NCBI GenBank assembly: GCA_963850385.1
Contig: CAWKKS010000001.1
Location: 1,209,551-1,273,550, forward strand
Length of the DNA stretch: 64,000 bases
Direction: 5' to 3'
Source of the DNA: Candidatus Dormiibacterota bacterium
GTDB lineage: Bacteria > Chloroflexota > Dormibacteria > Aeolococcales > Aeolococcaceae
Under the pieces are notes generated by a model that did no database searches, was not told where the DNA came from, and was given only the letters and a program-made list of their open reading frames with translations. Positions within the stretch are counted from its first letter, which is position 1. Each line of letters begins with the position of its first letter. The position numbers and the translations under genes are program-made. Of the stretch, positions 25,244 to 52,229 are shown piece after piece.

Positions 25244-26887
25244 CTACACCTCGGTGACGACGGGCAGGATCATGGGGCGGCGACGGGTCCTCGAGTACAG
25301 GAAGCGTGAGAGCCCCTCGTGGATCGCCGACTGCCAGACGCTCCACTCGGCGTCGGGCCTGAGCTTCTCGACCAGCGCCAGCGTGTGGGCACGGGCCTCC
25401 TCGAAGAGGTTGTCGGTGGCGCTGTCCTCGATGAAGCCGCGGGAGATCAGGTCGGGCCCGGCAATGATCGCCCCGGTGCTCCGCTCCACCGTCAGGGCGA
25501 CGATGACCACGCCGTCCTGGGCGAGCAGCCGCCGGTCGCGCAGGACGACGTCGCCCGCCTCGTCGATGCTGAGCCCGTCGACGTACACGTAGCCGGCCGG
25601 GACGCGCTGGTCGCGACGGCGGATGGTGTCGCCGTCGATCTCGATCACGGTGCCGTTGTCGACGGGCATGATGCGGTCACGTTGGATGCCCACCGAGGCG
25701 GCGATGTCGGCGTGGATGGCGAGGTGGCGGTACTCGCCATGCACGGGCACGAAGTACCGCGGACGGGTGAGGGTGAGCATCAGCTTCAGCTCCTCGCGGC
25801 TGGCGTGTCCCGATGCGTGGACGTGGTGCTTCGATGAGTTGAAGACGCGCGCCCCACGCCGGTAGAGGTTGTTGATGGTGCGATGCACCGCCTCCTCGTT
25901 GCCGGGGATGGGGTTGGCGCTGATGATCACGGTGTCGCCCTCGTGCAGCTGCACCATGGGGTGCTCACCGGCGGCAATTCGTGACAGGGCCGACATCGGT
26001 TCGCCCTGCGCCCCGGTGCAGAGCACCGCCAGCTGGTTGTCGGGGACGGCGGCGTGCTGCTTGGGCGAGACGAAGACGTCGGGTGTGCGCAGGAAGCCCA
26101 GCTCCTGGCCCACGCGCACGTTGTTGAGCATCGAGCGGCCGACGATGAAGCACTTGCGGTCACAGTCGACCGCGGCATCGATCGCCTGCTGCAGACGCGA
26201 GATGTTCGAGGCGAACGTCGCCATGAGGACCCGGCCGGGCGCGGCTGCGAAGAGCGGTGCCAGGCCCTCACCGACGTGGCGCTCGCTCGGCGTGGTGCCC
26301 TCGTGCTCCGCGTTGGTGGAGTCGCTGAGCAGCAGCAGCACACCCTCTTCGCCGAGACGGGCGAGCCGGGCCATGTCCGGAGGCGATCCCTGCACCGGCG
26401 TCTGGTCGATCTTGAAGTCGCCGGTGTGGATGATCACCCCGTCGGGCGTGTGCAGCGCGAGCGAGCACGCGTCCGGCACGGAGTGGGTGATGTGGATCCA
26501 CTCGACAGCGATCGAGCCCAGCTGCACGGTGTCGCCGGGACGGACTGTGTACAGGAAGGTGGAGTCGAGGAGCTTGTGTTCCTTCAGCTTGTTGCGCAGG
26601 AAACCAAGCGTGAGCCCGGTGCCGTAGACCGGCACGGGCAGGCGTGGGAGAACGTAGGGGAGCGCGCCGATGTGGTCCTCGTGCGCGTGGGTGAGGACGA
26701 TGCCGCGGACGCGCTGCACGCGCTCCATGAGCCAGGTGATGTCGGGGATGACCAGGTCGATGCCGAGCATCTCCTGCTCAGGGAACATCAACCCGCAGTC
26801 GACCACCACGATGTCCTCGCCGCACTCGATCGCCATCAGGTTGCGGCCGATCTCGCCTAGGCCGCCCAGCGGCACCAGCGAGATCAC
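25244..26887 (-). CDS. rnj: ribonuclease J
   Basis: Metallo-beta-lactamase/beta-CASP fold: LTHAHEDHIGALP, and the N-terminal MISLVPLGGLGEIGRN is typical of RNase J. Confidence 0.92.
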   Translation of the reverse strand: MISLVPLGGLGEIGRNLMAIECGEDIVVVDCGLMFPEQEMLGIDLVIPDITWLMERVQRVRGIVLTHAHEDHIGALPYVLPRLPVPVYGTGLTLGFLRNKLKEHKLLDSTFLYTVRPGDTVQLGSIAVEWIHITHSVPDACSLALHTPDGVIIHTGDFKIDQTPVQGSPPDMARLARLGEEGVLLLLSDSTNAEHEGTTPSERHVGEGLAPLFAAAPGRVLMATFASNISRLQQAIDAAVDCDRKCFIVGRSMLNNVRVGQELGFLRTPDVFVSPKQHAAVPDNQLAVLCTGAQGEPMSALSRIAAGEHPMVQLHEGDTVIISANPIPGNEEAVHRTINNLYRRGARVFNSSKHHVHASGHASREELKLMLTLTRPRYFVPVHGEYRHLAIHADIAASVGIQRDRIMPVDNGTVIEIDGDTIRRRDQRVPAGYVYVDGLSIDEAGDVVLRDRRLLAQDGVVIVALTVERSTGAIIAGPDLISRGFIEDSATDNLFEEARAHTLALVEKLRPDAEWSVWQSAIHEGLSRFLYSRTRRRPMILPVVTEV

Positions 26888-27537
26888 AGGGCGAAGAGGC
26901 TCAGCTGATCCACCGTGTCATGCTCGCTGACCGCCGGCGAGGTTCGCTCGCGGGCGGCACGCGTGGCCGCCGCCTCGTCGAGGTAGCCGCGCACGCGCTG
27001 CATGTCATTGAACAGCGTCTCCCGCAGCGAGCCGTTGTACAGCGCCGCCGCGGGGTGGTAGAGCGGCACGTACACGCGATCCTCGCGCAGCACGCGCTCA
27101 CCGTGCAGGCGGGTGATCCCGGCGGCTTCCGGCAGCAGCCGCTGCAGGGCGTGGCGCCCGAGGATGAGGATGACGTCGGGGCGCAGCAGGTCGATGGTCT
27201 CGTCGAGGAAATGGCTGCACGCCTGCACCTCGTCGGGCTCGGGGTCGCGGTTGGCAGGTGGCCGGCAGCGCACCGTGTTGGTGATGTAGATGTCGCGACG
27301 GGTGAGGCCGATCGATTCGACGAGCTCGGTGAGCAGCCGGCCGGCGGCGCCGACGAACGGCCGTCCCTGCTGGTCCTCCTTCTCGCCGGGCGCCTCCCCC
27401 ACCGCCATGATCCGCGCCTCGACCGGCCCATACCCGGGCACCGCCTGGCTACGGGTCACGTGGAGGCGGCAGGCGACGCAGGCCCGGATCCGGTCGTGGA
27501 TCTCGAGGAGCTGCTCCGTGGTCGGCGCCAGCTGCAT
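26884..27537 (-). CDS. udg: uracil-DNA glycosylase, family 4
   Basis: CVACRL Fe-S cysteines, GEAPGEKEDQQGRPFVGAAG, and HPAAALYN. Start at ATG 27537. The stop overlaps the rnj start (GTGA). Confidence 0.88.
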   Translation of the reverse strand: MQLAPTTEQLLEIHDRIRACVACRLHVTRSQAVPGYGPVEARIMAVGEAPGEKEDQQGRPFVGAAGRLLTELVESIGLTRRDIYITNTVRCRPPANRDPEPDEVQACSHFLDETIDLLRPDVILILGRHALQRLLPEAAGITRLHGERVLREDRVYVPLYHPAAALYNGSLRETLFNDMQRVRGYLDEAAATRAARERTSPAVSEHDTVDQLSLFAL

Positions 27538-27603
27538 TGGCGTCCGATTGTAGGGAGTGCCGGGCCGCCGCCCCTCCACCACACGGTGAGGGTGACGGCC
27601 TCG

Positions 27604-28218
27604 CTACCGGGCGCCCAGCGCTTGTGCTTGCCCGGTGGCGAGCAGGTCGGCAGAGCGCAGAGGGGCCAGAGAGGCGGCGAGGGCGCGCAGCGCCAGGCGG
27701 GTACGGCTCTTCACCGTCCCCAGCGGTCGGGCCATCAGGGCGGCGATCTCAGGCTGCGTGTAGCCGCCGTAGTACGCGAGCTCGATCGTCTCCCGCTGTG
27801 CCGGGGGGAGCGCGGCGAGCGCAGCGGTGATCGACTGCGCCTCGTCGTGGCGGATCACATCGGCAACGACGTCTGCCGGGTCGTACAGCGAGGCGATGTC
27901 GTCGAGCGACTGGTCGGTGCGGCGGCGTCCAGCGGTGCCGCGCAGCTGGTCGATGGCGCGGTTGCGCACGATGGTGCACAGCCAGGTGCGCAGCGAGGCC
28001 CGCTGCGGCTGGTAGCGCTGGGCGTTGCGCCACAGGGTGAGGAAGGCATCCTGCACCACGTCCTCGGCGACGCCGCGGTCGCCGACGATCCGATGGGCCA
28101 GGGTGAAGGCGAGGGTGCCGTACTGGTCGTAGATGCCGGCGATGTCCAAATCCGACGCGGGCGGCGGGCTGACGGCGGCGATTGCGGTCGGGGAAGTGGC
28201 TGCGCTGGCACCTGACAT
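27604..28218 (-). CDS. ECF-type RNA polymerase sigma factor
   Basis: Region 2 (AEDVVQDAFLTLWRNAQRY..LRTWLCTIVRNRAID) and region 4 (ETIELAYYGGYTQPEIAALMARPLGTVKSR). Confidence 0.85.
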   Translation of the reverse strand: MSGASAATSPTAIAAVSPPPASDLDIAGIYDQYGTLAFTLAHRIVGDRGVAEDVVQDAFLTLWRNAQRYQPQRASLRTWLCTIVRNRAIDQLRGTAGRRRTDQSLDDIASLYDPADVVADVIRHDEAQSITAALAALPPAQRETIELAYYGGYTQPEIAALMARPLGTVKSRTRLALRALAASLAPLRSADLLATGQAQALGAR

Positions 28219-28283
28219 GGGCCCAGTGTCACCGCCGCGGAGTCGCCTGGGGTGGCGCTGGGCCCCTCTACTTGGACAAGAAC

Positions 28284-28973
28284 CTATACAGGGGTGGTGG
28301 CCTCAGGAGCGGTGGACGCCGGTGGCCAGAGCTCCATGCCGGAGGACGAGAGCTGCTGGCCGATGAGGACGACGAGCGAGCTCGTCATCGTCGGCAGCAC
28401 GTAGCTGTCGAAGCTGAAGAGGGCCGAGAGCATCGGGGTGCGCAGGTTGAGCTCCCAGCCTCGCCGTCGCTGCGGGCGGTTGCGGTACAGGCGCGCCGCC
28501 TTGGAGCGGTCTCCCGGTTCGATGAGGTCGAGCAGGCGCGTTCCGCGGAGGTTCGGGCGCAACACCCCGGCCGCGCGCGCGAACGCCATGTTCACGTCGA
28601 TGATCTGTCCCTGCTCATCGAGGATGCACACCACCGAGGGGAGCAGGTCGGCCACCGCGCGCCAGGGGGCGGCGAGCGCGGCCGAGGGCGTCTCGCCGTC
28701 GACCTGGGGCGGCTGCAACGCGCCGTCCAGCTCCCCCAGCACCAGCCCGTTGGCCTCGGCCACGGCCAGCTTCAATGAGAGCCCGCGGGCGGAGACGTTG
28801 GTCCTGACGCGGCGCAGGGTGTCGACGTCGGCCATGGTGTAGCGGCGCTGTCCGGCAGCCGTGCGGCCCGGCGTCAGCACGCCGTGGCGGCGCTCCCATG
28901 CCCGGATCGTGTCGGTTGACACACCGACCATGGCGGCCAGCTCACCGATGGTGAGCGAGGGGTCAGCGTGCAC
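28284..28973 (-). CDS. MerR-family HTH regulator with C-terminal PAS-like domain
   Basis: LTIGELAAMVGVSTDTIRAWERRHGVLTPGRTAAGQRRYT (MerR HTH), then VVCILDEQGQIIDVNMAFARAAGVLRPNLRGTRLLDLIEPGD (PAS-like). Confidence 0.8.
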   Translation of the reverse strand: MHADPSLTIGELAAMVGVSTDTIRAWERRHGVLTPGRTAAGQRRYTMADVDTLRRVRTNVSARGLSLKLAVAEANGLVLGELDGALQPPQVDGETPSAALAAPWRAVADLLPSVVCILDEQGQIIDVNMAFARAAGVLRPNLRGTRLLDLIEPGDRSKAARLYRNRPQRRRGWELNLRTPMLSALFSFDSYVLPTMTSSLVVLIGQQLSSSGMELWPPASTAPEATTPV

Positions 28974-28982
28974 CGGTCACAT

Positions 28983-29651
28983 CTACAGCAACCGTCGCAT
29001 CAGCACGGTGGCGACCCGCGCGTCGCTGCCGTGTGCGTCGGCCCCGACGGCGCGCCACAGGTCGGGGGCGCGGTTGAACAGCGGGCCACCCACCAGCACG
29101 GGAACGCCGAGCTTCCTGACCGCGCCGATGGCCGCGGTGATCTGTGGTGCGGTGGGCAGGAAGGCAGCGGAGAGCCCGACCACGTCGGGGCGCCACTCAC
29201 CGACCGCTCGCAGCAGCTCGGCCTGCGGCGTCGGCGGGGGCAGTTGGTTCACCGCCCAGCCCTCGTCCTCGAGCGCCAGCGCGAGAAGCTGGAGGCCGAC
29301 CACGTGGCGCTCGCGCGGAAGCCCGGCGAGGATGCAGCGCGCCCCGCGCCTGACCGGCTGGGCGACGGGGGTGGGCGGCAGCGACCCGGCGATGGCGGTG
29401 ACGATCGCTGTCGCCCTGTGCTCCTCGGCGACACCCAGCCTGCCCTGGTACCAGAGCTCGCCGATCTGGTACTGGGCGGGGTGGAAGAGATCGCTGATCA
29501 AGGTCAGGCGTGAGCCGGTGGCGGCCAGGTGACGCTGCGCCACCTCGGTCGCGGTAGGACCGTCGCCGGCCACCAGGGCGGCGGTGAAGCTCTGCACCGG
29601 CGCACGCGGCCGCCGGCCCCGGCCTGCCGGCTGCGCGCCGCGATCAGTCAT
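28983..29651 (-). CDS. stand-alone CarH-type cobalamin (AdoCbl)-binding photoreceptor-like domain protein
   Basis: W-x9-EH signature (GELWYQGRLGVAEEHRAT) in the helical bundle and E-x-H-x-x-G (PRERHVVGLQLLA) in the Rossmann B12-binding domain. No DNA-binding domain. Confidence 0.85.
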   Translation of the reverse strand: MTDRGAQPAGRGRRPRAPVQSFTAALVAGDGPTATEVAQRHLAATGSRLTLISDLFHPAQYQIGELWYQGRLGVAEEHRATAIVTAIAGSLPPTPVAQPVRRGARCILAGLPRERHVVGLQLLALALEDEGWAVNQLPPPTPQAELLRAVGEWRPDVVGLSAAFLPTAPQITAAIGAVRKLGVPVLVGGPLFNRAPDLWRAVGADAHGSDARVATVLMRRLL

Positions 29652-29723
29652 GTCCAGGATCTTGTCAAACCCCCGGGATGTTCGCGAGCGTGGGCCGGGG
29701 CACGCCCGCCTAGTGTTGGCCGC

Positions 29724-30086
29724 GTGAGCAGGAGGCCGGCGGCAAACGTGCCCGTGCTGGTCCTCTGCGCCGACGCAGCACTGCGGCAGTCGCTCGGCGA
29801 GCTTCTCCTCGCGGATGGACGGGCGCTGGCCCCAGAGCCGGGCGTACCCCCGAGGCCGAGCCCGAATGGTCGGCTGGTGGTGGTGGCGGCCTGCGATGCA
29901 TGGCCGCCCGGCTGGAACGTCGCCCGGGTCCGGCGCACGTTCGCGCGCGCCCCGTGCCTGATGCTGAGCGGCTCACCGCTGGGCGGAGACTTCGCGGCGG
30001 CCGAGCTCCCCAACGGCTACTTCGCGCAGCTGCCGGCCTTGCCGAGCACATTCCTCGGGCTCGTGGCGGAGCTGTCAGCTGCCTAG
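29724..30086 (+). CDS. hypothetical receiver-like (pseudo-receiver) protein
   Basis: VPVLVLCADAALRQSLGELLLADG..LVVVAACDAWPPG.. resembles a degenerate CheY-like fold. GTG start chosen after the divergent gene. Coding-like sequence continues in the +1 frame past the stop. Confidence 0.4.
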   Translation: MSRRPAANVPVLVLCADAALRQSLGELLLADGRALAPEPGVPPRPSPNGRLVVVAACDAWPPGWNVARVRRTFARAPCLMLSGSPLGGDFAAAELPNGYFAQLPALPSTFLGLVAELSAA

Positions 30087-30279
30087 CTGGGACGCGGACG
30101 AGCTGGCGCTGCTCGGCCTGACCGCATCGGATCTCACCGCCCTGGCGGCGACCATCGAGGTGCTCCGGCGCCGCCGCCCCTCCGACCCGACGGTGCTGCG
30201 CGCGCACCAGCTGGTGACGGGGCTGCACGGGACGGTCAGCCAGCTCATCGGACGGCTGAAGGCGTGACCACGGTCACCG

Positions 30280-31292: not shown

Positions 31293-33436
31293 TTATGCCG
31301 GCCCGCCGCTGCCGGCGCCGGCAGCCTCTGACTGCTGCTTGGCCAGATCGCGGATGGCCTCCTTGCGGGAGAGGTTGATCCGGCCGCGGTCGTCGACCTC
31401 GATGACCTTGACCATGATCTCGTCGCCGATGTTGACAACGTCCTCGACCTTCTCGACGCGGTGCTCGGCGAGCTGGCCGATGCGCACCAGGCCCTCCTTC
31501 TTGGGAGCGATCTCCACGAAGGCGCCGAAGCCCATCAGCCGGGCCACGCGACCCTTGTAGATCTTGCCGATCTCCACGTCCTCGGTGAGGTCGCGGATCA
31601 TCGCCAGTGCCTGCTCACGCGCGGCTGCGTTGGCCGACGCGATGCTGACGGTGCCGTCGTCCTCGATGTCGATCTGGCAGCCGGTCTCCTCGACGATCTT
31701 GCGAATCATCTTGCCTCCCGGGCCGATGACGTCGCGGATCTTGTCGGGGTTGATGTGGATCGTCTCGATCCGCGGTGCCCACGGGCTCATCTCGGTGCGC
31801 GGCTGCGCCAGCGCCTCGGCCATCTTGCCGAGGATGTGGATGCGGCCGGCGCGGGCCTGCGCGAGCGCCTGCTCGAGAAGCTCCCAGCGCAGCCCCTTGA
31901 TCTTCATGTCCATCTGCAGCGCGGTGATGCCGTTCTGGGCTGCCGGCGACCTTGAAGTCCATGTCGCCGAGAGCGTCCTCCATGCCCTGGATGTCGCTGA
32001 GGATGGCGGCACGGTCGTCACCCTCGTCGGTGATCAGGCCCATGGCGATGCCGGCCACCGGTGCCACCAGGGGCACGCCGGCGTCCATCAGCGCGAGGCA
32101 CGAGCCGCACACCGACGCCATCGAGGTCGAGCCGTTGCTCGAGAGGATCTCGGTGACGATGCGCACCACGTAGGGGAAGTCGGCGTCGTCCGGCATGACG
32201 TTGTGCACCGCGCGCTCGGCGAGCGCGCCGTGGCCGATCTCGCGGCGCCCGGGGGCACGCTGGAAGCGCGCCTCGCCGACGGAGTACGGCGGGAAGTTGT
32301 AGTGGTGCATGAAGCGCTTGAACTCCTCGAGCCCAAGACCGTCGATCTTCTGCTGGTCCTGGCCGGAGCCGAGCGTGACGATCGACAGGGCCTGCGTCTG
32401 GCCGCGGGTGAAGATGGCACTGCCGTGGGTGCGTGGCAGAACACCGACCTGCGCCCAGATCGGCCTGATCTCGTCGGTGCGACGACCGTCCGGGCGAACG
32501 CCCTCATGGAGGATGGCGTTGCGCACCGCCTTCTTGGTCTCCGACTCGAACGCCTTGCTGATGTCGGCGCGCTTCTCCGGGAAGCGCTCTGACAGCTGGG
32601 CGACGACGTCTGCCTTGAGGTCGTCGAGCTGACGCTCTCGCGCCGTCTTGTCGACGTTGCGTGCAGCCTGGCCGATGCGATCGGCGACGAGGGTGTGCAC
32701 CTCGGCCGCGACGTCGGGATCGGTGCCGACCGGCGGGTAGCTCATCGTCGGCTTGGCGCCGACCGCGTTGCGGATGTCGAGCTGGAACTGGACGAGTCGC
32801 TTGATCTCGTCGTGCGCCATGCGCATCGCCTGGAGCATCACGTCCTCGGCGACCTGGCGCGCGCCCGCCTCCACCATGGAGATCGAGTTCGGCCGTGCCG
32901 GCGACCACGAGATCGAGGTCGGACTCGGCGATCTGCTGGAGCGTGGGGTTGAGCATCAGCTGCCCGTCGATCATGCCGACGCGCACGCAGCCGACCGGGC
33001 CGGCGTGGGGGATGTCGCTGATCGCCAGCGCCAGCGACGCACCGGTGACCGCGAGGGTGGTGGGGTCCTGTTCCTGGTCAGCGCTGACGACGGTCGCGAT
33101 GATCTGGACGTCGTTGCGGAAATCCTTGGGGAACAGTGGCCGCAGCGGACGGTCGATCATGCGGCTGGCGAGGACACCGGCCTCGCTGGGGCGTCCCTCG
33201 CGGCGGGGAAAGCTGCCGGGCACGCGGCCGACGGCGTACAGCTTCTCCTCGTAGTCGCAGGTGAGTGGGAAGAAGTCGATGCCCTCGCGCGGGGCCTTGT
33301 TGGCGGTGGCGGTGACCAGCACCACGACGTCCCGGCAGCGGATGAAGAGGGCGCCGTTCGCCTGCTCGGCGATGTGCCCGGTCTCGACGGTCAGTGTCTG
33401 GCCGGCGTAGTCGGATTCGAATTTCTGGTAGGCCAT
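31293..33436 (-). pseudogene. pnp: polynucleotide phosphorylase, reading frame broken twice (about 32890 and about 31938)
   Basis: Three overlapping ORF-track ORFs (32504..33685, 31615..32877, 31293..32021) together give a colinear PNPase: MAYQKFESDY..DLVVAGTAE / [18 protein letters not shown] / [17 protein letters not shown]1. Removing one nt at each junction restores AGTANSISMVEAGA and [15 protein letters not shown]. Confidence 0.9.
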
Positions 33437-33497
33437 TGGGTCTCCTGTTGCGTGGATGACCCGGGTACGACGGGACCTGCTGCACCGCGCGACTGGT

Positions 33498-33587
33498 GGT
33501 GAGATTGGAGGCTGGAGGTCGGCTGTCGGGTCGCGCCGCCGGGCTGCGATGCCGATCTGCTGCCGAGGTCCAGGCGCCAACCTCTCA
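33498..33587 (-). promoter_or_regulatory. long imperfect hairpin in rpsO-pnp spacer (candidate RNase III-type pnp leader)
   Basis: Arms 33561-33587 and 33498-33522 are largely complementary (GUGAGA..UUGG..CUGGA..UCGGC). Position is analogous to the autoregulatory pnp leader of E. coli. Confidence 0.4.
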
Positions 33588-33725
33588 CCGCTGCGCGTGG
33601 CTGCGGGGGTCGTCGCTCCCGGGTCGGAACGATTTGGTTGCTCTTTGTATAGATGTCGGGCCCACAGGTCACATGGGCTGGGCACAGCCCTCCGTGGGGT
33701 GGACCAACGAGCGTGAGTGCATCGC

Positions 33726-42739: not shown

Positions 42740-43029
42740 CGTGGCGATGGCTGGACCTCCTGGATGAGCGCCTCGAGGGCTGCGCTCAGCTCCGCGTAGT
42801 TGATGACATCTTCCCCCACCCGCAGGGAACGCATCAGTGCCCGCCGGCGCCGTGCCTGCGTCAGGCAGTCGATGCCGTCAGCGCAGAGGTAGGCTCCCCG
42901 GCCGGGAAGCTGGTTGCGAGTATCAAGGGTAACCTGTCCGCCGCTTCCAAGGGCGAGCCGGACCAGCTCGGGCCGGTCACGCACCTGGCGGCAGCCGACG
43001 CAGGTCCGCCGCGGCACCCGGCCGGTCAC
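42736..43029 (-). CDS. ylxR: YlxR-family (DUF448) RNA-binding protein
   Basis: RRTCVGCRQ...GRGAYLC motif and the nusA-ylxR-infB context. Confidence 0.85.
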   Translation of the reverse strand: MTGRVPRRTCVGCRQVRDRPELVRLALGSGGQVTLDTRNQLPGRGAYLCADGIDCLTQARRRRALMRSLRVGEDVINYAELSAALEALIQEVQPSPR

Positions 43030-43994
43030 CGGGCCTCGACATCGACGACGTCGATCCGCCAGCCGGAGAGACGGGCGACCAGGCGGGCGTTGTCCCCTCC
43101 CCTGCCGATGGCCAGGGACAGCTGGTCGGCGTCCGCCGTGACTGTGGCGGTGCGGGTCTCCTCGTCGAGGCGGACCCCTCGCACCGTGGCCGGGGCGAGG
43201 GCGTTGGCGATGTAGGTGGCGGGGTCGTCCGACCAGACGATGATCTGCACCTGCTCACGACCGAGAACCGAGGTGATCGCCTGGTGGCGAACCCCGCGCG
43301 GACCGATGCAGGCGCCGCGCGCGTCGACCGCGGGATCGACGGCCTCGACGGCCACCTTGCTGCGCCGGCCCGCCTCGCGCACGATGCCGCGCACCACCAC
43401 CTGGCCGTTGGCGACCTCGGGGACCTCCTGTTCGAGGAGCAGCCGTAGCAGCTGCGGGTGCGACCGCGAGACCACGACCACGGCGTCCTGGGCGCGGCGA
43501 CGCCCCTCCAGCACCATGACCTTGAGGTGCCGGCCGGCGACCAGCTCCTCGCCGACGATCTGCTCCTCGGGCGGCAGCAACACCGTCATCTCCCCGGCGC
43601 GCAGGTACCAGACAGGCCCCGACCGGGTGTCGACGACGGTGTCGATGAGCTCACCGCGCCGCAGAGACGCCTCGCGGAGCACGCGGTCCTTCCCCGCCTC
43701 GCGCAGCGCGCCGGCCACGGCGGCCCGGGCCGCGTGGGCGGCCTGGCGGGGAAAGTCGGGAACGGAGACGTCCACCGTCTCCTCCCCGCCATCCGGGCCG
43801 CGCCGGTACATCGAGCAGTGGCCCGACTGCAGGTCGACGCGGGCGTGGATGGACGGATCGTCATCGATGACCCGGCGGTAGGTGTCGACGAAGGCAGCCT
43901 CGAAGAGCGCGGCGAGGCGATCGTCGTTCAGCGCTGTGGTCTCGCGCAGCGTGGCGATGGCGCCCTCCAGGGGCGCCGGTGCGTCCTCGCTCAC
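43026..43994 (-). CDS. nusA: transcription termination/antitermination factor NusA
   Basis: S1-like region and two KH motifs (ACIGPRGVRHQAI, AIGRGGDNARLVARLSG). Confidence 0.9.
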   Translation of the reverse strand: MSEDAPAPLEGAIATLRETTALNDDRLAALFEAAFVDTYRRVIDDDPSIHARVDLQSGHCSMYRRGPDGGEETVDVSVPDFPRQAAHAARAAVAGALREAGKDRVLREASLRRGELIDTVVDTRSGPVWYLRAGEMTVLLPPEEQIVGEELVAGRHLKVMVLEGRRRAQDAVVVVSRSHPQLLRLLLEQEVPEVANGQVVVRGIVREAGRRSKVAVEAVDPAVDARGACIGPRGVRHQAITSVLGREQVQIIVWSDDPATYIANALAPATVRGVRLDEETRTATVTADADQLSLAIGRGGDNARLVARLSGWRIDVVDVEAR

Positions 43995-49243: not shown

Positions 49244-50290
49244 TTAAGAGAAGAGCGCTGTCTGGGAGGCGTCTGCGCCGACGGTGCCCGGCGGCACCGT
49301 GAGCCCGAGGTGCTCGTAGGCGCGCGCCGTCGGGACGCGCCCGCGCGGCGTACGCGCCAGCATGCCGAGCCGGATCAGGTAGGGCTCGACGACGTCCTCG
49401 ATCGTCTCGGGTTCCTCCTGCACGCTCACCGCGATCGTCTGCACCCCGACCGGGTGCCCGCGCAGCGGACCGCACAACGCGGCCAGGACGCGGCGATCCA
49501 TCTCGTCCAGGCCGGCGGCGTCGATGCCGAGCATGTCGAGAGCCGAGGTGGCCGCGGCAACGTCGATGTGCCCGGCGGCGCGAACCTGCGCATAGTCACG
49601 GGCGCGGCGCAGCAGCCGGTTGGCGACGCGCGGCGTGCCGCGGGCACGGGAGGCGAGCAGCGCGGCGCCATCGTCGTCGATGGGGATCGCCATCAGTCGC
49701 GCGCTGCGCCTGATGATGTCGGCGAGCTCGCCGTCGTCGTAGTAGTCGAGGCGGAAGGTCACCCCGAACCGATCGCGCAACGGCCCTCCCAGCGCCCCGG
49801 CACGGGTGGTCGCCGCGATCACCGTGAAGCGGTTGAGGCTGAGGCGCAGCGTCTGGGCACCCGCGCCACGCCCCGCGACGAAGTCGAAGGCGAGGTCCTC
49901 CATGGCCGGGTACAGGGCCTCCTCCACCGCGTGGTTGAGACGGTGGACCTCGTCGATGAAGAAGACGTCGCGGTCGTTCAGCGAGGTGAGGATGGAGGCG
50001 AGCATGCCCTGGTGCTCGAGCGCCGGCCCCGAGGTCAGCCGCGCCTGGACGCCCATCTCGGTGGCGATGATCTGCGCCAGCGTCGTCTTGCCAAGACCCG
50101 GGGGCCCGTACAGGAGGACGTGGTCGAGGGGCTCGCCACGCCCGCGCGCCGCCTCGACGAGGACGCGCACCTGTTCGTGGATGTTGGCCTGGCCGACGAA
50201 ATCCTCGAGGCGCTGGGGACGCAGCGCGACCTCGGCCGCGTGGTCCTCCTCGTGCTCCAGCGGGTCGACGGGACGCGGTTCGGTCATCAC
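49244..50290 (-). CDS. ruvB: Holliday junction branch-migration helicase RuvB
   Basis: LRPQRLEDFVGQ, Walker A GPPGLGKTT, Walker B FIDEVHRL. Confidence 0.93.
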   Translation of the reverse strand: MMTEPRPVDPLEHEEDHAAEVALRPQRLEDFVGQANIHEQVRVLVEAARGRGEPLDHVLLYGPPGLGKTTLAQIIATEMGVQARLTSGPALEHQGMLASILTSLNDRDVFFIDEVHRLNHAVEEALYPAMEDLAFDFVAGRGAGAQTLRLSLNRFTVIAATTRAGALGGPLRDRFGVTFRLDYYDDGELADIIRRSARLMAIPIDDDGAALLASRARGTPRVANRLLRRARDYAQVRAAGHIDVAAATSALDMLGIDAAGLDEMDRRVLAALCGPLRGHPVGVQTIAVSVQEEPETIEDVVEPYLIRLGMLARTPRGRVPTARAYEHLGLTVPPGTVGADASQTALFS

Positions 50291-50901
50291 CCCGCCGCCA
50301 CCATGTCGAGGCGTCGCAGCGCGGCGGCCACCAGGGCGGCGACGTCCAGGGGCGCGGCCCCGTCGGTGAGCGCAGCCTTGACAGCGTCACGGGCCGCGTT
50401 CTCGCGGAAGCCCATGGTTGCCAGCCCGTCGACCGCCGCGCGGATCGCCTGTTCCGCCGCCGCCTCCACTGGCGTTGCCCGGTCGCCGGGGAGCGCCAGG
50501 CCGTCCAACTTGTCGCGCAACTCGAGCACCACGCGCTCGGCCGTCTTGGCGCCGATCCCGGGCACGGTGGAGACCATCGCGGCGTCGCCACTGCGCAGGG
50601 CCCGCACCATGGTGGCGAGGTCGGCGCGTCCGAGGATGCCGAGCGCCGCCTTGGGGCCGATGCGCTCGACCGCGATGAGCAGCCGGAAGAGGCGCAGCTC
50701 CTCGCGGCTGGTGAAACCGTACAGGCGGATGGCGTCAGCGCTGACGGAGGTGTGCACGTGGAGGGTTACCTGGGCAGGGCTGTCATGCAGGGCGACGGCG
50801 GTGCGCAGATGGCACTGCACCGCGTACCCGACACCGTTGACGTCCACGGTGACAACGTCCTCGTCGACCCACAGGACCGTGCCGCGGAGCAGCGCGATCA
50901 C
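50287..50901 (-). CDS. ruvA: Holliday junction DNA-binding protein RuvA
   Basis: VIALLRGTV..VDVNGVGY.., and HhH motifs (VPGIGAKTAERVVLEL). GTG 50901 overlaps the ruvC stop (GTGA). Confidence 0.9.
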   Translation of the reverse strand: MIALLRGTVLWVDEDVVTVDVNGVGYAVQCHLRTAVALHDSPAQVTLHVHTSVSADAIRLYGFTSREELRLFRLLIAVERIGPKAALGILGRADLATMVRALRSGDAAMVSTVPGIGAKTAERVVLELRDKLDGLALPGDRATPVEAAAEQAIRAAVDGLATMGFRENAARDAVKAALTDGAAPLDVAALVAAALRRLDMVAAG

Positions 50902-52229
50902 CGCGTCGCCGCACCGAGGCGGTGGCGTGCAGCCGCGACGGCGGTGTCGAGCGCAGAGACCCGTGCCGGCTGTGCCTGGCGGCGCACCCGCACGGTCAGG
51001 GCGGCGCGATGGTGATGACAGACGGCGACGGCGCACGCGTCGGCGACGTCATCGGGCCCCTCGATCCGCTCCACCGCGAGCAGTTGGCGCGTCATCCTCT
51101 GCACCTGTGGCTTGCGGGCCGCCCCGTAGCCGGCGACCGCCTCCTTGACCTCGTTGGGCGTGTACTCGAAGACCGGGACGCCCGCAGCCGCCAGCGCGCA
51201 CAGAAGGACGCCGCGGGCCTCGCTGACCCGCATTGCCGTGGTGCGGTTGGTCGAGAAGAACAGCCGCTCCACGGCGGCGAAGGCCGGCCGGTACTCGCTG
51301 ACCACGGCGGTGATCAACCGCGACAGCGCGTAGAGGCGCTGCGGGTCGGCGGCGTCCGCGGTGGTGCTCAGGCAGCTGCTGTGCACGAGGGTGAGCGACC
51401 CCGGCCCACCGTCCACGACCGCGACGCCGGTTCGTCCCAGTCCCGGATCGACGCCCAGGACGCGCACCCTCAGCCGACCGAACTCGAGGACGTCGTCAGG
51501 GATCTCGGCGTTGGCGTAGACCTGTTGCACGTCGTCGTCCTCCTCGAGGGCGTCGAGCAGACGCAGCACCGCGGCCGCCTGCTTCGCATCGAGCGCCACC
51601 GAGGTGCTCGGGTTCATGGTCACCTCGCCGGAGTCGATGGCCAGGCCTGCGTGCTCGATGGCGGCGCGCGCGGCCTCGAAGTGGACCGGGTCGACGGTCA
51701 CGATGACCGCGTCGTCATCGACGCTGACGTCGCCGTCGTGACCGACGTCGACGAGCTCCAGGAGGCGCAGGGCCAGCTCCTCGGGGTCGTCGGCGCCGGC
51801 CACGACGCGCAGGACGCCCTGCTGGGTGAACATCCAGCCCACGCTGTTGGTCTCGCCCAACGACCCGCCGGAGCGGGTGAACAGGTTGCGAACCGCCGCC
51901 ACCGTCCGATTGCGGTTGTCGGTGAGCACGTCGACCATCACCGCCACCCCGTGGGGACCATAGCCCTCGTAGCGGATCTCCTCGAGCTGGCTGCCGTCCT
52001 TGCCGCCCGCGCCGCGCTGCACGGCCCGCTCGATGTTGTCGGCGGGCATGTTGACCTCGCGCGCCTTCTGCATGGCCAGCCGAAGGCGGAAGTTCGCGGC
52101 GGGGTCGGGTCCGCCCTCGCGGGCCGCGACCGACAGCTCACGGGCCACCTTGGTGAAGACCTGTCCACGCTTGGCGTCGACGATCGCCTTCTTGTGCTTG
52201 ATCCCCGCCCACTTGCTGTGACCGGACAT
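50898..52229 (-). CDS. yebC-ruvC: single ORF fusing YebC/PmpR-family protein (aa 1-254) to crossover junction endonuclease RuvC (aa 255-443)
   Basis: MSGHSKWAGIKHKKAIVDAKRG...DVQQVYANAEIPDDVLEFGRLR runs in frame, with no stop, into VRVLGVDPGLGRTGVAVV...ERLFF...DACAVAVCH. The internal GTG is at 51467. GGAGGA precedes ATG 52229. Confidence 0.85.
   Translation of the reverse strand: MSGHSKWAGIKHKKAIVDAKRGQVFTKVARELSVAAREGGPDPAANFRLRLAMQKAREVNMPADNIERAVQRGAGGKDGSQLEEIRYEGYGPHGVAVMVDVLTDNRNRTVAAVRNLFTRSGGSLGETNSVGWMFTQQGVLRVVAGADDPEELALRLLELVDVGHDGDVSVDDDAVIVTVDPVHFEAARAAIEHAGLAIDSGEVTMNPSTSVALDAKQAAAVLRLLDALEEDDDVQQVYANAEIPDDVLEFGRLRVRVLGVDPGLGRTGVAVVDGGPGSLTLVHSSCLSTTADAADPQRLYALSRLITAVVSEYRPAFAAVERLFFSTNRTTAMRVSEARGVLLCALAAAGVPVFEYTPNEVKEAVAGYGAARKPQVQRMTRQLLAVERIEGPDDVADACAVAVCHHHRAALTVRVRRQAQPARVSALDTAVAAARHRLGAATR

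Follow-up and report, generated by a model that had tools for sequence, protein, structure and literature searches.

In CarH and the class I LitR proteins, a MerR/CarA-type DNA-binding domain and an adenosylcobalamin (AdoCbl)-binding domain lie in one polypeptide (PMC8156234, PMC9758184). The five LitR classes differ in their C-terminal domains, and none of those described there combines a PAS C-terminus with a separate B12 protein; in Pseudomonas, an adjacently encoded short LOV protein binds class II LitR in the light and releases it from DNA (PMC9758184). Here we examine a locus on contig CAWKKS010000001.1 of Candidatus Dormiibacterota bacterium, within a stretch of 64,000 nucleotides (nt) that we call the window (G+C about 71%), whose proteins have their closest relatives in metagenome-assembled genomes (MAGs) of Candidatus Dormibacterota. 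In this locus a stand-alone B12 module and a MerR-family regulator with a PAS domain are encoded by neighboring genes, followed by a gene for an extracytoplasmic function (ECF) sigma factor. We consider it moderately probable that these genes make up a naturally split CarH/LitR-type B12 photoreceptor-regulator, conserved in Dormibacterota and feeding an ECF sigma cascade. Our literature search, which did not cover most subscription journals, turned up neither a description of paired B12 and MerR-PAS proteins nor a report of Dormibacterota sensing light. The module consists of the following genes; the coordinates and gaps of the three minus-strand genes are exactly as in a preliminary description of this DNA.

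28983-29651, minus strand: B12 protein gene, 222 amino acids (aa), a stand-alone B12 (AdoCbl) photoreceptor-type module
28284-28973, minus strand: MerR-PAS gene, 229 aa, GTG start, 9 nt downstream of the B12 gene
27604-28218, minus strand: ECF sigma gene, 204 aa, ATG start, 65 nt downstream of the MerR-PAS gene
29724-30086, plus strand: receiver-like (pseudo-receiver) gene, stand-alone, GTG start, divergent from the B12 operon

The B12 protein had been credited with both CarH hallmarks and with no DNA-binding domain, and our analysis bears this out. Pfam matched B12-binding_2 (PF02607, 2.4e-11) and B12-binding (PF02310, 1e-15) and nothing else, hence no DNA-binding domain. The W-x9-EH motif is present as ELWYQGRLGVAEEHRAT (W67-x9-E77-H78) and the His-on motif as RERHVVG (E114-x-H116-x-x-G119); the remaining cobalamin motif residues are S161 and G188-G189, and their spacing (G119-x41-S161, then x24 to G188G189) is consistent with the CarH B12 motif (E/DxHxxG-x41-Sxx-x22-27-GG). 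Across 35 homologues, down to 41% identity, W67, E77, H116 and G119 are invariant, as are S161, G188 and G189, and H78 is retained in the closer clades and in all clades with short MerR-PAS partners. The preliminary description had staked its reading on the conservation of these motifs in orthologues, and their invariance or near-invariance indicates that they are not due to chance.

The AlphaFold2 model of the B12 protein (predicted local distance difference test, pLDDT, 93) consists of a four-helix bundle, the cap, and a Rossmann fold. Its top Foldseek matches are 8jbs, 8j2w, TtCarH and AerR, and profile comparison with the PDB ranks 8j2w at 1.4e-24 (33% identity, template modeling score, TM, 0.78), CarH at 3e-12 and AerR at 5e-11. 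The best solved relatives by sequence and fold are thus all photoreceptors, comprising the photocobilins 8j2w/8j2x/8j2y, the B12 domain of a Chloracidobacterium MerR-family photoreceptor (8jbs), TtCarH and AerR, and the photoreceptor folds superpose with TM 0.74-0.79 as against 0.48-0.50 for corrinoid proteins. In the PDB profile alignment W67, E77, H78 and H116 fall on W61, E71, H72 and H108 of the photocobilin SasPcob (PMC10979010). From its sequence, we infer that the protein binds AdoCbl and is sensitive to light. An exact-sequence look-up of the protein returned no match on record. Residues 1-19 (29595-29651, minus strand) form a conserved Arg-rich tail (RGRRPRAPV, consensus RxxRxxV) that is loosely AT-hook-like and modeled with low confidence; it may contact DNA or a partner. 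The homologue alignment reveals no conserved His in this tail.

The downstream gene had been read as a MerR helix-turn-helix (HTH) fused to a PAS-like domain, a reading that is upheld and can be taken further, since AlphaFold2 gives a complete PAS fold. In the model (pLDDT 85) a winged helix (aa 1-75) is followed by a disordered linker (aa 83-97) and the PAS domain (aa 103-211), and Pfam matches MerR_1 (1e-16) and PAS (7.5e-8). The profile searches suggested earlier therefore found B12-binding_2, B12-binding, MerR_1 and PAS each in the expected gene. Against the PDB, the family profile matched TtCarH/LitR (3whp/5c8d) at 8e-17 and the Myxococcus xanthus CarA DNA-binding domain (2jml) at 8.5e-14, with the next family, TnrA, at 5.6e-8; the best HTH match in NCBIfam is the CarH model (1.2e-11). 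As judged from these sequence matches, the HTH is specifically of the CarH/CarA type. The coiled coil of MerR proteins is absent from the model, the HTH being followed by the disordered linker as in CarH. Foldseek matches of the PAS domain include PpsR, with the similarity confined to the generic PAS fold, and in the alignment the stretch equivalent to the LOV motif NCRFLQ reads N128-M/I/V-A-F-A-R, with no conserved Cys and hence no LOV cysteine.

The question of whether the two genes form one unit was addressed through their distribution. Scanning genomes with the B12 family yielded 27 loci, almost all of them in Dormibacterota MAGs. Of these, 26 belong to the family, and in 24 of these 26 a MerR-PAS gene comes directly after the B12 gene. 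The B12 stop and MerR-PAS start overlap by 4 nt in about 19 loci and are separated by 4-9 nt in the window clade. In the reciprocal scan, full-length MerR-PAS proteins occurred only in this group, and in about 20 of their 25 loci a B12 gene immediately precedes the MerR-PAS gene; elsewhere the same type of HTH is fused to a B12 domain, forming a canonical CarH. The identity matrices of the two proteins co-diverge (Mantel r 0.85; none of 2000 permutations reached this value) over 30 non-redundant adjacent pairs, within-genome paralogous pairs included. So far the pair is restricted to Dormibacterota, with several paralogous pairs per genome.

The type of B12 protein also varies with that of its partner. 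Those with Wx9EH and ExHxxG pair with short partners of about 215-240 aa, and those with Wx9E[L/V] and DPHxxG pair with MerR-PAS-PAS-GAF partners of 516-586 aa. The latter sub-family, which may be a light-independent branch or use a different sensing mode, is made up as follows (loci carry L numbers).

L021, L024, L042, L044, L045, L047 and L048: B12 gene of the Wx9E[L/V]/DPHxxG sub-family with a downstream MerR-PAS-PAS-GAF gene

Adjacency, 4-nt overlaps, co-divergence and the covariation of motif and partner together argue that the B12 and MerR-PAS proteins function together. Co-conservation of the pair, on which the preliminary description had made its reading depend, is thus what the genomes display, and its view of the locus as a two-polypeptide version of CarH/LitR gains support from the CarH-type DNA-binding domain, the photoreceptor-type B12 module and the co-conserved, translationally coupled and co-diverging genes. 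We also considered a frameshifted fused carH. Two in-frame stops separate the open reading frames (ORFs) in the window, the two genes are adjacent in 30 non-redundant Dormibacterota loci in varying frames with no fused ORF, and no fused B12/MerR-PAS protein occurs among the 240 protein clusters listed. This explanation was rejected, as the order of B12 module and then HTH reverses that of CarH and the split is kept across the 30 loci in varying frames. Being conserved across loci, the split is ancient and no assembly artefact.

Several further arrangements were seen in related genomes. Two or three paralogous pairs occur in SMAG_U11102, MFD09603.bin.2.48, SMAG_U4902 and MFD00731.bin.1.225, and one MAG contig (L040:2725-6898) carries MerR-PAS, B12 and MerR-PAS genes in tandem with another B12 gene on the opposite strand. 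A fused CarH in one frame (WH...EH) lies near an ECF sigma gene in an Anaerolineaceae MAG (L076:1672-3342) and a Thermomicrobiales MAG (L082:2264-4725), a layout that is possibly ancestral to the split system of Dormibacterota. In L005 the sigma gene is followed by an ORF of 541 aa that, being low-complexity, looks spurious. A conserved gene of about 115 aa (c12; invariant HHFR, C71, W84 and W89) is found directly after MerR-PAS or after an orphan B12 gene; its copies, none of which is in the window, are listed here.

L005:6633-6998, c12 gene
L006:6633-6968, c12 gene
L007:6315-6725, c12 gene
L013:1267-1635, c12 gene
L026:380-739, c12 gene

The c12 protein has no significant match in PDB or Pfam; a weak profile similarity (hhalign E about 1e-3, probability 14-19%) links it to 356-aa B12 proteins, at their photoglobin-like N-terminus.

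Candidate binding sites for a CarH-type regulator were found upstream of the B12 and sigma genes, built on TnnACA, the core of the CarH repeat nAnnTnnACAn (PMC8156234).

29651-29669, minus strand: operator-like site 1, TTTGACAAGATCCTGGACA, two TnnACA direct repeats with a 12-base-pair (bp) period
28272-28290, plus strand: operator-like site 2, TTGGACAAGAACCTATACA, in inverted orientation, starting at the MerR-PAS stop codon

Site 1 takes in the first base of the B12 start codon, is separated by 54 nt from the GTG of the receiver gene and is identical in L001-L004; the form TTAGAC-N6-TTAGAC, seen as a variant in other clades, is found upstream of the B12 gene in most loci of the EH-type clades. 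Site 2 is 53 nt upstream of the sigma ATG. Each of the five loci of the window clade has it, always 53-54 nt from the sigma start codon though at a variable offset to the MerR-PAS stop, and the receiver gene has the same operator spacing of 53-54 nt in the window, L001 and L012. The strict pattern TnnACA-N6-TnnACA matches three times in the 64 kb as compared with 0.17 expected, twice in the locus (29651-29668, minus strand; 28273-28290, plus strand), and of 33 upstream regions across loci 10 carry it, where about 0.005 would be expected in each. The third match, TCGACACCGTCGTCGACA (43628-43645, minus strand), lies inside a NusA-like ORF (43026-43994) and was taken as chance.

The start codons of the module are closely preceded by hexamers that resemble -10 elements, two of which are listed here as putative elements.

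29711-29716, plus strand: -10-like hexamer TAGTGT, 7 nt before the receiver gene GTG
28225-28230, minus strand: -10-like hexamer GACACT, 6 nt before the sigma ATG

A hexamer TAGnGT or CA(G/C)AGT is kept 6-9 nt before the receiver start in 17 loci, and (G/A)ACACT-N6-ATG/GTG is conserved before the sigma gene in the window and L001-L004; the sigma-gene hexamer resembles CACAGTGGGCCCATG, which precedes the receiver gene in L012. A -10-like CAAGAT precedes the B12 start, giving hexamers 6-7 nt before all three start codons (regions 28216-28230 for sigma, 29651-29663 for B12 and 29711-29726 for the receiver). No Shine-Dalgarno sequence precedes the sigma, B12 or receiver start codons in the window, which, together with the -10-like hexamers close to these codons, suggests that the three mRNAs may be leaderless in this lineage. 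In the L009-L016 clade, GGAGG-type ribosome-binding sites are seen before the B12 gene.

The assignment of an ECF sigma factor 65 nt downstream of MerR-PAS agrees with Pfam (Sigma70_r2, Sigma70_r4, ECF), with a SigK-like match in NCBIfam below the cut-off. It is linked to the B12/MerR-PAS pair in 13 loci in two arrangements. In the window clade the sigma gene is downstream of MerR-PAS with its own operator-like copy, and in the L009-L016 clade the receiver, ECF sigma and a DoxX gene form an operon divergent from the B12 operon, so that one operator can serve both. The ECF sigma factor is probably the output of the module. No anti-sigma gene adjoins it in the window; the DoxX protein, which has no homologue in the window, could be the missing anti-sigma-like partner.

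L009, L010, L012, L014, L015 and L016: DoxX-family membrane protein of about 129 aa, encoded after the receiver and sigma genes

The receiver-like gene is conserved in 13 related loci (tblastn), and its profile matches PDB receiver domains (FleR REC, 8e-7). The protein keeps D17, D58 and S82, including the Asp at the phospho-acceptor position, and in the window clade has Gln at the position of the conserved Lys, which makes the earlier label "pseudo-receiver-like" a fair one.

Drawing these observations together, we propose a model for the module. The 222-aa protein would bind AdoCbl in the base-off/His-on form through H116, with a W67/E77/H78 cap covering the adenosyl group, and MerR-PAS would supply a CarH-type DNA-binding domain, a flexible linker and a PAS domain that docks onto the B12 module; the PAS residues W104/R105, D126/N128, R156/K158 and R171-N176 are invariant. 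In the dark, cofactor-dependent head-to-tail assembly of the B12 modules would place the DNA-binding domains on the tandem TnnACA repeats, at site 1 for the B12 operon and receiver gene and at site 2 for the sigma gene. UV, blue or green light would then cleave the Co-C bond and loosen the assembly, with a resulting change in how the B12 operon and the receiver and sigma genes are transcribed, and a regulon elsewhere in the genome would in turn be switched on by the sigma factor. The AerR-CrtJ, short LOV-class II LitR and LitR-LitS systems, all of them studied by experiment, provide precedents that make each step plausible. On polarity, we somewhat prefer dark-state co-repression of the B12 operon to a light-state anti-repressor mode, and CarH-like dark repression fits the overlap of site 1 with the B12 start. 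If the mRNAs are leaderless, operators placed at -54 to -72 of the receiver and sigma promoters would be just as compatible with activation. The stronger claim, that the pair is a heteromeric B12 photoreceptor whose free AdoCbl module acts in trans, through PAS docking, to make assembly of the CarH-type DNA-binding domain depend on light, and would thus amount to a sixth LitR/CarH class, we advance tentatively, as slightly less likely than not.

Four other explanations have to be weighed against the split photoreceptor-regulator, and the most serious concerns its polarity. PAS-dimerised MerR-PAS might bind the operators alone, with the illuminated B12 protein stripping it from DNA or turning it into an activator. 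Such a mode has precedents in AerR, which modulates the PAS-HTH regulator CrtJ once it has bound the hydroxycobalamin that light generates (PMC9144470), and in the short LOV protein, which when illuminated attaches to class II LitR and keeps it from binding DNA (PMC9758184); PAS domains commonly dimerise, the PpsR PAS is among the fold matches, and the -54 to -72 operator position at the receiver and sigma genes would suit an activator. However, the B12 protein has a conserved His neither in its N-terminal tail nor beside the Trp that could take hold of photolysed cobalamin in the manner of LAerR or CarH, the intact adenosyl-capping Wx9EH points to a functional dark AdoCbl state, and direct repeats with no palindrome suggest CarH-like head-to-tail assembly, unlike a symmetric PAS dimer. 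We therefore regard the anti-repressor mode as unlikely, while treating it as the main alternative. It is improbable, in our view, that the pair is instead a chemical sensor reporting cobalamin availability, with AdoCbl as a co-repressor that tunes the sigma factor. The B12-binding motif is intact, CarH-type repressors require AdoCbl for DNA binding and so report B12 supply too (PMC8156234), and soil bacteria are probably often in the dark; against this, every closest solved relative of the B12 module is a photoreceptor, and Pfam scans of the 40 other window ORFs found no genes for B12 biosynthesis, B12 transport or B12-dependent enzymes nearby, nor did an Rfam scan of the window find a cobalamin riboswitch, its sole match being one tRNA. 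The photoglobin-like gene in some related loci is weak evidence in the same direction.

The two remaining explanations detach the B12 protein from its neighbor or from light. In one, MerR-PAS senses a ligand or redox state and the B12 protein acts elsewhere, one possibility being that it partners the ECF sigma factor much as an anti-sigma factor would, under the control of light. This would accord with the lack of an anti-sigma gene beside the sigma gene in the window, and stand-alone photocobilins have been proposed to regulate through protein contacts, including with STAS/anti-sigma-antagonist proteins (PMC10979010). We hold it to be highly improbable, as the adjacency of B12 and MerR-PAS genes is far more conserved than the sigma linkage, the overlaps, co-divergence and motif/partner covariation argue for joint function, and the DNA-binding domain has no coiled-coil oligomerisation element of its own. 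In the other, the B12 protein is a corrinoid methyl-carrier of the MtbC/MtgC type, as some automatic annotations would have it: JGI labels several homologues "methanogenic corrinoid protein MtbC1", and the corrinoid proteins 1y80, 4jgi and 7xcn are among the PDB matches. The NCBIfam scores are far below their cut-offs (MtgC 30 bits against 370, MtbC 13 against 350), the superposition on corrinoid proteins is poorer than on photoreceptors (see the TM values above), no corrinoid-type methyltransferase gene occurs among the 40 scanned window ORFs, and the protein lies in an obligate operon with a transcription factor. Scores, fold matches and gene context effectively refute this role, which we consider barely conceivable.

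Several observations weigh against the split photoreceptor-regulator itself. All the evidence is computational and all sequences come from uncultured MAGs, and docking of PAS onto the B12 module is pure inference. A few MerR-PAS paralogues have no adjacent B12 gene (L041, L050-L052), and the ECF sigma linkage extends to only about half of the loci. The residue after the cap Trp is an invariant Tyr in place of the upper-ligand His of TtCarH, so that no TtCarH-style bis-His light state is expected; SasPcob likewise forms no bis-His state, yet monomerises in the light (PMC10979010). The repeats have a period of 12 bp as opposed to the 11 of CarH, only two are evident, and the more divergent clades do not have the TnnACA repeat motif. 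The operator-like sites stand 53-72 nt away from the start codons of the receiver and sigma genes, which, if the mRNAs are leaderless, is not a classic repressor position, and a promoter and terminator scan of 27500-30200 yielded no consensus site, sigma-70 promoters included. Finally, the preliminary description was correct that no carotenoid or photolyase targets lie in the window: Pfam scans of the 40 other ORFs found none, leaving no light-protective targets nearby.

Elsewhere in the window, the polynucleotide phosphorylase gene pnp (31293-33685, minus strand) is split over three frames with junctions near 32888 and 31938, its segments being 85-96% identical to the intact L001 orthologue. 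Either the assembly has indels here or the gene has recently become a pseudogene, a warning that indel errors may be present in the window; despite these apparent indels, the B12, MerR-PAS and sigma genes all have full length when compared with their homologues. A single 443-aa ORF at 50898-52229 (minus strand) combines YebC/TACO1 and RuvC domains and overlaps the RuvA ORF (50287-51036) by about 140 nt, and may be a true fusion or a further indel artefact. A family-4 uracil-DNA glycosylase gene (26884-27582, minus strand) begins 21 nt past the stop codon of the ECF sigma gene and shares its last 4 nt with the start of the RNase J gene. The glycosylase and sigma genes may be co-transcribed, and their layout is retained only in L001 and L002.

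If our model is correct, the CarH light switch can be divided between two polypeptides, one carrying the oligomerising B12 sensor and the other the DNA-binding domain, and the LitR/CarH family would gain a PAS-bearing class, in one sub-branch of which the adenosyl-capping His was lost and PAS-GAF sensors were acquired. The covariation of motif and partner would then represent a natural experiment in which B12 photoreceptors lose or exchange their sensing function. It would also mean light sensing in an uncultured soil and desert phylum that is not known to respond to light, and would offer a handle on light and B12 responses in the Dormibacterota, which include the Antarctic MAG Candidatus Aeolococcus gillhamiae (L002). 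A natural green-light-controlled heteromer, composed of a B12 module and a PAS docking partner, would in addition be useful as an optogenetic tool.

Set against the described systems, the module shares elements with each of them. Stand-alone B12 proteins that have no DNA-binding domain and partner a regulator with PAS and HTH domains are known from AerR/PpaA and CrtJ/PpsR (PMC9144470), and action in trans like that of AerR had been suggested for this locus. As a mechanistic analogy this is reasonable. Membership of the AerR group is another matter: the B12 protein has no upper-ligand tail of the His10 type (LAerR), AerR matches it less well than photocobilins and CarH do, and there is no CrtJ-type partner, CrtJ/PpsR being non-homologous proteins of PAS-Q-PAS-PAS-HTH architecture in contrast to the N-terminal CarH-type HTH and single PAS found here. 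The photosynthesis-gene context of AerR-CrtJ is also absent. The photocobilins SasPcob and AbDPcob provide the best match among solved sequences and have the W, EH and lower-His residues in common with the B12 protein, which has no His beside the Trp, consistent with a non-bis-His light state (PMC10979010). Unlike them, the window protein ends after the Rossmann fold, with no globin-like biliverdin domain.

The pairing of short LOV and class II LitR proteins in Pseudomonas resembles the present module in drawing on CarH-type HTH, B12-type and PAS-type domains and in having an adjacent small photoreceptor that acts in trans. The partition differs, however, as there the HTH is joined to a degenerate four-helix bundle with LOV separate, whereas here it is joined to PAS with an apparently complete B12 module separate, and the chromophore is FMN (flavin mononucleotide) in the short LOV protein as opposed to the AdoCbl predicted here. 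With Streptomyces LitR the module shares a partner ECF sigma gene (PMC11519972), adjacent in 13 loci and preceded in five window-clade loci by an operator-like copy 53-54 nt upstream. The preliminary description had litR followed by litS in Streptomyces, which is incorrect, as litR and litS of S. griseus have bidirectional promoters instead (PMC11519972); a comparable divergent layout is seen in one Dormibacterota clade, L009-L016.

It is with CarH and class I LitR (T. thermophilus, M. xanthus, B. megaterium and Streptomyces) that the comparison extends furthest in both directions. CarH forms an oligomer in the dark that depends on AdoCbl and comes apart in light, and our model predicts similar behavior here. 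The CarH operator consists of three to four copies of the 11-bp repeat nAnnTnnACAn, as opposed to two evident copies with a 12-bp period in the operator-like sites here, a Tyr takes the place of the His beside the cap Trp, the DNA-binding domain carries PAS instead of a B12 domain, and a receiver-like gene is part of the module. Above all, the two halves are on separate polypeptides with the B12 gene first; CarH being a single polypeptide, the pair is therefore not a CarH. It nevertheless has the CarH/CarA-type winged helix with a linker after the DNA-binding domain, the four-helix cap and Rossmann module with both Wx9EH and ExHxxG...S...GG, and, as a candidate operator, direct repeats with a TnnACA core that would overlap its own promoter region.

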